DNA of 64,000 nt, taken from the NCBI RefSeq assembly GCF_003334355.1, contig NZ_QOWP01000023.1; one strand, 5' to 3'. Positions within the stretch are counted from its first letter, which is position 1; each line of letters starts with the position of its first letter. Origin of the DNA: Escherichia coli. Lineage in GTDB: Bacteria; Pseudomonadota; Gammaproteobacteria; Enterobacterales; Enterobacteriaceae. Below are positions 36,448 through 36,950 of the stretch, piece after piece. The position numbers were made by a program, and so were the translations under genes. The notes beneath the pieces were generated by a model that saw only the letters and a list, made by a program, of their open reading frames with translations, was not told the origin of the DNA and did not search any database.

Positions 36448-36950
36448 TGCCGGATGCGGCCTACGGTTCGGCACAGACTTGTAGGCATGATAAGACGCGT
36501 CCAGCGTCGCATCAGGCATTGTGCGCCAACTGCCGGATGCGGCGTGAACGCCTTATCCGGCCTACGGTTCGGCACAAACCTGTAGGCCTGATAAGACGCG
36601 ACAAGCGTCGCATCAGGCATTATGCGCCGACTGCCGGATGCGGCGTGAACGCCTTATCCGGCCTACGGTTCGGCACAGACTTGTAGGCATGATAAGACGC
36701 GACAAGCGTCGCATCAGGCATTGTGCGCCAACTGCCGGATGCGGCGTAAACGCCTTATCCGGCCTACGGTTCGGCACAGACTTGTAGGCATGATAAGACG
36801 CGTCAAGCGTCGCATCAGGCATTGTGCGCCAACTGCCGGATGCGGCGTGAACGCCTTATCCGGCCTACGGTTCGGCACAAACCTGTAGGCATGATAAGAC
36901 GCGACAAGCGTCGCATCAGGCATTATGCGCCGACTGCCGGATGCTGCCTA
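36448..36950. repeat. Tandem array of ~5 REP/BIME units (~101-bp period)
   Basis: Repeated tgccggatgcggcgtgaacgccttatccggcctacggttcggcacagacttgtaggcatgataagacgcg...cgtcgcatcaggcattgtgcgcc units. Confidence 0.85.

Follow-up and report, generated by a model that had tools for sequence, protein, structure and literature searches.

The 64,000-nt stretch of Escherichia coli DNA analyzed here, called the window throughout, carries a tandem repeat in the gap between the convergent genes yjjW and yjjV. This raises the questions of what kind of element the repeat is, how it reached its present length and what it might do for the two genes that meet there. BIME-2 arrays have been described since 1991, and the present one was already known: it is the BIME-2 of the REP352 locus, found here as its commonest allele, and it is real but ordinary. 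The window also contains the threonine operon leader (10179-10298, - strand, Rfam 122 bits), which means that it spans the conventional K-12 coordinate origin and is reversed relative to K-12.

Identification as a BIME-2

With Tandem Repeats Finder one array was detected, at 36457-36944, with a period of 101, 4.8 copies, 94% matches, 0% indels and a score of 885. In agreement, a repeat search returned four 202-nt copies at exact 101-nt steps with identities of 92-95%. The gap between the two stop codons measures 516 nt (36446-36961), of which 98% is repeat. Including the remnants at both ends, the repeat extends from 36448 to 36951, starting 2 nt after the yjjW stop codon and lying wholly between the yjjW and yjjV stops, and is thus extragenic, as is typical of BIME-2. 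The initial annotation had described an array of about 500 bp, built from REP/BIME units of about 101 bp, that fills the yjjW-yjjV gap, and had set tandem periodicity as the test of this reading. The array and its periodicity both stand and the class can be refined to BIME-2.

Each 101-bp unit consists of a Y REP on the + strand, a 16-nt tail-to-tail linker, an inverted Z2 REP and a 13-14-nt head-to-head linker (Table 1). Altogether the array holds five Z2 and four intact Y REPs, that is nine intact REPs, plus two 17-nt collapsed Y remnants at its ends. The Z2 label rests on REP325, whose unit is labeled Z2 in PMC4550694, and we named the linkers by position rather than by the historical S, s, l and r motifs. 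Across units the tail-to-tail linker follows the consensus GGTTCGGCACA(G/A)AC(T/C)T. Both end remnants are 17 nt long and lack 18 internal nt; the two deletions, equal in size, appear to be independent, and hairpin-mediated slippage and TnpA_REP processing are both possible explanations.

Table 1 Features of the yjjW-yjjV locus in window coordinates. The names yjjW and yjjV are taken from the RefSeq annotation beneath the BLAST matches.
Feature	Coordinates	Strand	Basis or description
yjjW, glycyl-radical enzyme activase CDS	35582..36445	+	287-aa ORF; RefSeq annotation under all BLAST matches
Left collapsed Y REP remnant, TGCCGGATGCGGCCTAC	36448..36464	+	Y head and CCTAC tail kept; central 18 nt lost
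Tail-to-tail linker GGTTCGGCACAGACTT, 16 nt	36465..36480; also 36566-36581, 36667-36682, 36768-36783, 36869-36884		Unit alignment
Z2 REP, five 37-nt copies	36481..36517, 36582-36618, 36683-36719, 36784-36820, 36885-36921	-	Pattern search, 0-2 mismatches, 101-nt spacing
Head-to-head linker ATTGTGCGCCAACT; ATTATGCGCCGACT in units 2 and 5	36518..36531, then every 101 nt		Unit alignment
Y REP, four intact copies	36532..36565, 36633-36666, 36734-36767, 36835-36868	+	GCCGGATGCGGCGTGAACGCCTTATCCGGCCTAC with 0-1 mismatch
Four Z2-linker-Y doublets, Rfam RF02564 naRNA4	36484-36562, 36585-36663, 36686-36764, 36787-36865	-, yjjV sense	74.2-83.7 bits vs gathering score 59.5
Right collapsed Y REP remnant, TGCCGGATGCTGCCTAC	36935..36951	+	17 nt; Y head and CCTAC tail, central 18 nt lost
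yjjV, TatD-family metal-dependent hydrolase CDS	36962..37744	-	260-aa ORF, convergent with yjjW; RefSeq annotation under BLAST matches

The REPs are no product of chance, since the 34-nt Y consensus has 10 matches in the 64-kb window and the Z2 pattern five, both against 0.00 expected. BIME-2 elements are defined by Y and Z2 REPs in inverse orientation, joined by short linkers, present in multiple tandem copies and variable in copy number between strains (Ton-Hoang et al., PMC3333891). The array agrees with this definition point by point. In composition, four Y REPs match with 0-1 mismatch, the five 37-nt REPs align with the REP325 unit and the doublets match naRNA4. Alternation is strict at 101-nt spacing, with all Y on the + strand and all Z2 on the - strand. 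Multiple tandem copies are evident from the 4.8 copies given by Tandem Repeats Finder and from the nine intact REPs and two remnants, while the linkers are short (16 nt and 13-14 nt), with neither an L linker nor an IHF consensus in the array. Copy number varies between strains and the copies within the locus are similar, the units in the window differing at 1-7 of 101 positions. Substrates of TnpA_REP require an imperfect palindrome, a conserved GTAG 5' of its foot and a stem mismatch (PMC3333891); here a GTAG/CTAC tetranucleotide marks the foot of every intact REP and the Y stem contains an internal mismatch. BIME-2 identity is thus near certain.

Folded as DNA, the Y hairpin reaches -11.3 kcal/mol (z = -3.0) and the Z2 hairpin -9.6 kcal/mol (z = -3.4), and each Z2-linker-Y doublet can form one long hairpin of -27 kcal/mol (z = -4.4 to -4.8). 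The remnants are not stable: the left one folds at -4.2 kcal/mol (z = -0.7), which is no significant hairpin, and the right one at -0.6 kcal/mol. As RNA the whole array folds at -275.6 kcal/mol on the + strand (z = -12.0) and at -272 kcal/mol on the - strand (z = -10.8) relative to shuffled controls. The repeat search returned no inverted repeats, as its 9-nt exact seed misses imperfect palindromes, but the palindromes are clear from folding and pattern searches. None of the hairpins has a T-run behind it, and a terminator scan detected no site resembling an intrinsic terminator in the array. Promoter-like sites numbered two against 0.8 expected, which is not significant; one of them lies at 36950-36922 (- strand) with 9/12 matches.

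We assign a probability of about 0.93 to the overall reading of the yjjW-yjjV array as a BIME-2 that is orthologous to REP352a-h of K-12 and arose by multiplication of one 101-bp unit in place.

Alternative readings of the array

The naRNA4 matches in Table 1 open the way to a different interpretation. Besides the four doublets on the yjjV-sense strand, there is a truncated fifth match at 36888-36948 (31.5 bits), and the + strand has one match at 61.0 bits, above the gathering score of 59.5. Matches on this scale could be taken to mean that the array is a cluster of naRNA4-like sRNA genes, whose two-hairpin RNAs would, together with HU, bridge DNA cruciforms and condense the nucleoid, as originally proposed for REP325 (PMC4550694). 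However, RF02564 was modeled on the Z2-l-Y doublet of REP325, which is a plain BIME-2 doublet, and a score above its threshold shows a class of sequence and structure, not a function. The model also exceeds its gathering score at three of the four other REP/BIME sites in the window, which indicates that it captures BIME doublets in general. Alleles with zero or one unit are, moreover, frequent. In a 2026 preprint (10.64898/2026.03.23.713779), which shares the author S. Adhya with the original proposal (PMC4550694), neither deletion nor overexpression of REP325 changes nucleoid compaction, and REP-REP contacts were not detected. This preprint weakens the nucleoid-condensing model, the main functional rival to the hairpin-block reading developed below, and we regard a cluster of sRNA genes as very unlikely at this locus. 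The naRNA4 covariance-model matches should not be taken as sRNA genes.

The window has four other REP/BIME sites. In the one at 4820-4896, a Y REP at 4820 precedes a stretch at 4854-4896 that matches Rfam ES036 (CssrF). The site at 18973-19053 is a Y-Z doublet and that at 23303-23452 a cluster of a Y and a Z2-Y pair, whereas at 44576-44720 a Z-like REP is flanked by two Y-like REPs.

That the five-unit length is an assembly artefact, produced by expansion or collapse of the repeat, is more improbable still. Tandem repeats of 101 bp at 94-99% identity are indeed hard for short-read assembly. Nevertheless, the array is identical in the closest complete genome, which belongs to another isolate (strain 203740) and differs from the window at a single base, outside the array, over the 1601 bases around the locus; this makes collapse or expansion in the window unlikely. 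A further argument comes from the 214 records that match the 1601-nt query at 99% identity or more, and from the five-unit span seen in about a third of the systematically sampled complete genomes. In the final stretch of yjjW, position 36411 is G in the window and T in strain 203740, which turns GGGGTGGGCC into a run of eight G and Val into Gly. This G8 run was absent from every other locus fetched and could be either a real SNP or a homopolymer sequencing error.

Since BIME-1 elements also contain Y REPs, we considered whether the array might be a BIME-1 or RIP-type element serving mainly as an IHF binding site. BIME-1 is a single Y-Z1 pair whose long L linker bears the IHF site (PMC3333891), but here the copies are tandem, the linkers are short (16 and 13-14 nt), and alignment with REP325 makes the second REP a Z2. 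The IHF consensus WATCAANNNNTTR has no match in 36446-36961, its three matches in the 64-kb window all lying elsewhere. We see next to no chance for this reading, and IHF binding, which the initial annotation had listed among the properties of such arrays, does not hold for this one, as the IHF site belongs to the BIME-1 linker.

Equally remote is the idea that the overlapping 'MPDATL...' ORFs (33-114 aa, ATG starts, both strands; for example 36613-36822 and 36714-36923 on the - strand) encode real repeat proteins: a period of 101 is not divisible by 3, so that the frame changes with each unit and an ORF ends after about two, Pfam has no match even at E <= 10, the 16 E. coli RefSeq records inspected have no CDS between yjjW and yjjV save an inserted IS621 transposase in strain GPEC548, and the REP hairpins account fully for the sequence. 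The array codes for no protein and these ORFs are, as had been suspected, artefacts of translating REPs. A CRISPR array was rejected as well, because the would-be spacers recur and are interleaved with two distinct palindromes, leaving nothing unique.

Copy number, array history and the yjjV end

We decoded 14 E. coli alleles and the loci of three other Escherichia species-representative genomes. A single lone Y REP (zero units) is left in isolate 30821_1#274, one unit is present in ATCC 25922, two in O157 and O104:H4, three in PT109, four in K-12, five in the window and in AST217, nine in L16-131 and eleven in Escherichia sp. MOD1-EC7003. The last is the longest array seen, with 11 Z2 and 11 Y REPs over 1128 nt (positions 3230-4357 of fetched locus L019). 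Of the remaining two species representatives, Escherichia sp. E1V33 carries a two-unit array, and SCPM-O-B-8794 has a single unit and lacks the left remnant. Every decoded E. coli allele that bears an array has this remnant, as do two of the three other species representatives. A contig scan with a degenerate yjjW 3'-end pattern returned only these three Escherichia loci and two chance matches. The array seems to be older than the divergence of E. coli from the lineages of MOD1-EC7003, E1V33 and SCPM-O-B-8794.

The frequencies of the alleles were estimated from two systematic samples drawn from a ranking of 5,426 complete genomes, with spans read against the decoded examples and clonal relatedness left in. 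Informative rows numbered 59 in the first sample and 57 in the second, where a unit number could be assigned to 55. The second was based on a nine-unit query that splits five-unit alleles into one-sided places, so that its counts are approximate and inferred from spans. In the first and second sample, respectively, five units were counted 22 and 17 times, four units 7 and 9 times, three units 2 and 5 times, two units 12 and 10 times, one unit 12 and 13 times, zero units 2 and 0 times and nine units once each; the first sample also contained one IS621-disrupted allele. Among the matches to the nine-unit query, listed best-first, at least 31 records had six units, and seven and nine units were each represented by two, the six- and seven-unit assignments being inferred from spans. 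Variation in copy number between strains, as the initial annotation anticipated, is therefore real and ranges from 0 to 9 units in E. coli, with 11 in another Escherichia species.

Five units constitute the modal allele, found in about a third of the sampled genomes, so that the size of the array is ordinary for this locus. Its earlier description as large for a REP cluster needs correction in this respect: nine intact REPs fall in the upper range, yet REP325 has twelve hairpins. Alleles with zero or one unit make up about a quarter of the sampled genomes, which implies that a long array is dispensable and that any benefit of its length is small. Another tandem copy-number difference in the same window concerns tRNA-Leu(CAG), with only one gene at 44865-44951 (+ strand) where K-12 has three in tandem at the corresponding place (leuQ, leuP and leuV).

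The linkers give a view of how the array may have grown. The tail-to-tail linker pattern CTACGGTTCGGCACARAC has five matches in the window against 0.01 expected, all of them inside the array; this restriction to a single array indicates that the units are products of in-place amplification rather than of separate insertions. The array is more similar to itself at an offset of 303 (98.8% identity) than at an offset of 101 (94.6%), units 1-2 being nearly the same as units 4-5, and the unit types follow the order A B A A B. Judged from this pattern, the last change in the window allele points to an exchange in three-unit register. L16-131 has a comparable internal duplication of 384 nt, with one truncated Z2.

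Unequal homologous exchange or replication slippage between units is the likely means by which unit number is resized. The REP-associated transposase TnpA_REP/RAYT, which cleaves and recombines BIMEs in vitro (PMC3333891), possibly helps the amplification. Of eight highlighted REP regions, however, REP352 is the only one that RAREFAN did not predict as a RAYT-associated REPIN (10.1101/2024.07.17.603846), and this weakens the RAYT part of the account.

In K-12 the yjjV-yjjW site bears the EcoCyc name REP352a-h and overlaps yjjV by 2 nt; it belongs to a set of eight REP regions listed as exonuclease-protected during SDS or copper stress (10.1101/2024.07.17.603846). The copy of RefSeq NC_000913.3 consulted has no REP features annotated at this locus.

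At the yjjV end the alleles fall into two main 3'-end haplotypes (window 36935-36975 versus positions 1035-1085 of fetched locus L002), and NCTC9080 carries a third junction. In the K-12-type haplotype, which has an intact Y at this place, the CTAC of that Y holds the yjjV stop codon and the protein ends in ...FNVP. The right remnant is restricted to the window-type haplotype, in which the collapsed Y is followed by GAAGGGTAAACTACCCACTAACGC and the protein ends in ...FSVSG. From the yjjV stop to the first stable hairpin the distance is 0 nt in the K-12 type versus about 40 nt in the window type. These differences indicate that REP rearrangements have remodeled both the last yjjV codons and the stop-to-hairpin distance.

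The locus has also received an insertion. In E. coli GPEC548, IS621 (an IS110-family element with a bridge-RNA recombinase) occupies positions 666-1949 of fetched locus L003, inserted at the GTAG|GC foot of the Z2 REP in a one-unit allele, with AG (CT on the complementary strand) as the core dinucleotide at both junctions. Its target ATCATGCCTAC is one mismatch away from the natural IS621 target ATCAGGCCTAC (PMC11208160). Within the window array the exact target occurs only in Z2 copy 2 (36582-36618).

Putative roles and comparison with known systems

Turning to function, we lean towards the view that the array serves as a two-way 3'-UTR hairpin block and attenuator for the yjjV and yjjW transcripts and also as a gyrase site, a view drawn from work on other elements of the class. 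Lying in the 3' untranslated region of both convergent genes, the array would add a ladder of stable hairpins without U-tracts to a transcript arriving from either side. Such hairpins would block 3'-to-5' exonucleases and partly attenuate read-through, so that the two convergent transcripts would be kept apart. In the 2026 preprint, REP325 is a partly Rho-dependent attenuator that stabilizes the mRNA upstream of it and gives rise to a ladder of transcripts with hairpin ends; REPs between convergent genes are associated with higher expression of both genes, and about 40% of them lie in predicted bidirectional terminators (10.64898/2026.03.23.713779).

The array may in addition be a gyrase-binding or topological-barrier site, placed where the positive supercoils of convergent transcription would meet. 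Gyrase cleavage sites mapped by Topo-Seq are over-represented in BIME-2, favor Y over Z2 and persist when transcription is blocked (PMC6379681), and BIME-2 sites lie preferentially between supercoiling domains (PMC10592627). Gyrase binding and mRNA stabilization, both named in the initial annotation, are published properties of such elements as a class. The supplement text searched for the gyrase-mapping paper (PMC6379681) contains no mention of yjjV or yjjW.

A more speculative idea, which we consider doubtful, is that the array acts as a strain-level expression dial: the number of units (0 to 9 or more) and the condition of the terminal Y would tune stabilization, termination or translational coupling of both convergent transcripts. 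In the window allele the collapsed terminal Y is separated by about 40 nt from the closest intact hairpin; in the K-12 type the terminal Y is intact and overlaps the yjjV stop. The locus offers a natural allelic series for the effect of REP dose on convergent genes and, if the dial were true, this series would include the effect of a stop-codon-proximal REP on translation.

The discovery value of the array is small, as the yjjW-yjjV locus is already catalogued in K-12 as REP352. For annotation, a repeat-region label (BIME-2, nine REPs and two remnants) is appropriate, and ORF calls within the region are best suppressed. With 0-11 units across Escherichia, the locus behaves like a 101-bp VNTR, which makes it a possible typing marker and a possible error spot in short-read assemblies.

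Among known systems, the closest is REP352a-h of K-12 MG1655, which shares the locus, the flanking genes, the 101-bp unit, the linkers and the collapsed Y remnant at the yjjW end. The K-12 array has four Z2 and four intact Y REPs, compared with five Z2 and four intact Y in the window. Its last Y is intact and overlaps the stop of a 780-nt yjjV, whereas in the window a last Y collapsed to 17 nt precedes 24 nt of another yjjV 3' end, giving a gene of 783 nt.

REP325, the yjdM-yjdN BIME-2 of K-12 that is the source of naRNA1-6, is built from the same tandem doublets of inverted Z2, linker and Y, with a period of 100 and 5.8 copies compared with 101 and 4.8 in the window. Its REPs align column for column with the window units, and the same covariance model matches both. 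On the other hand, REP325 occupies another locus, has other linkers and lies between two co-directional genes of one operon, whereas the window array lies between convergent genes and so falls in the 3' UTR of both.

BIME-1 and RIP elements stand further away: they are single-copy and pair Y with Z1 across a long L linker with an IHF site, and the window array has none of these. REPINs mobilized by RAYT/TnpA_REP resemble the array in that its Z2-linker-Y doublet can fold into one long hairpin with a GTAG foot and a stem mismatch. They differ in that the window has no RAYT gene and the locus-specific linker points to amplification in place rather than to repeated transposition.
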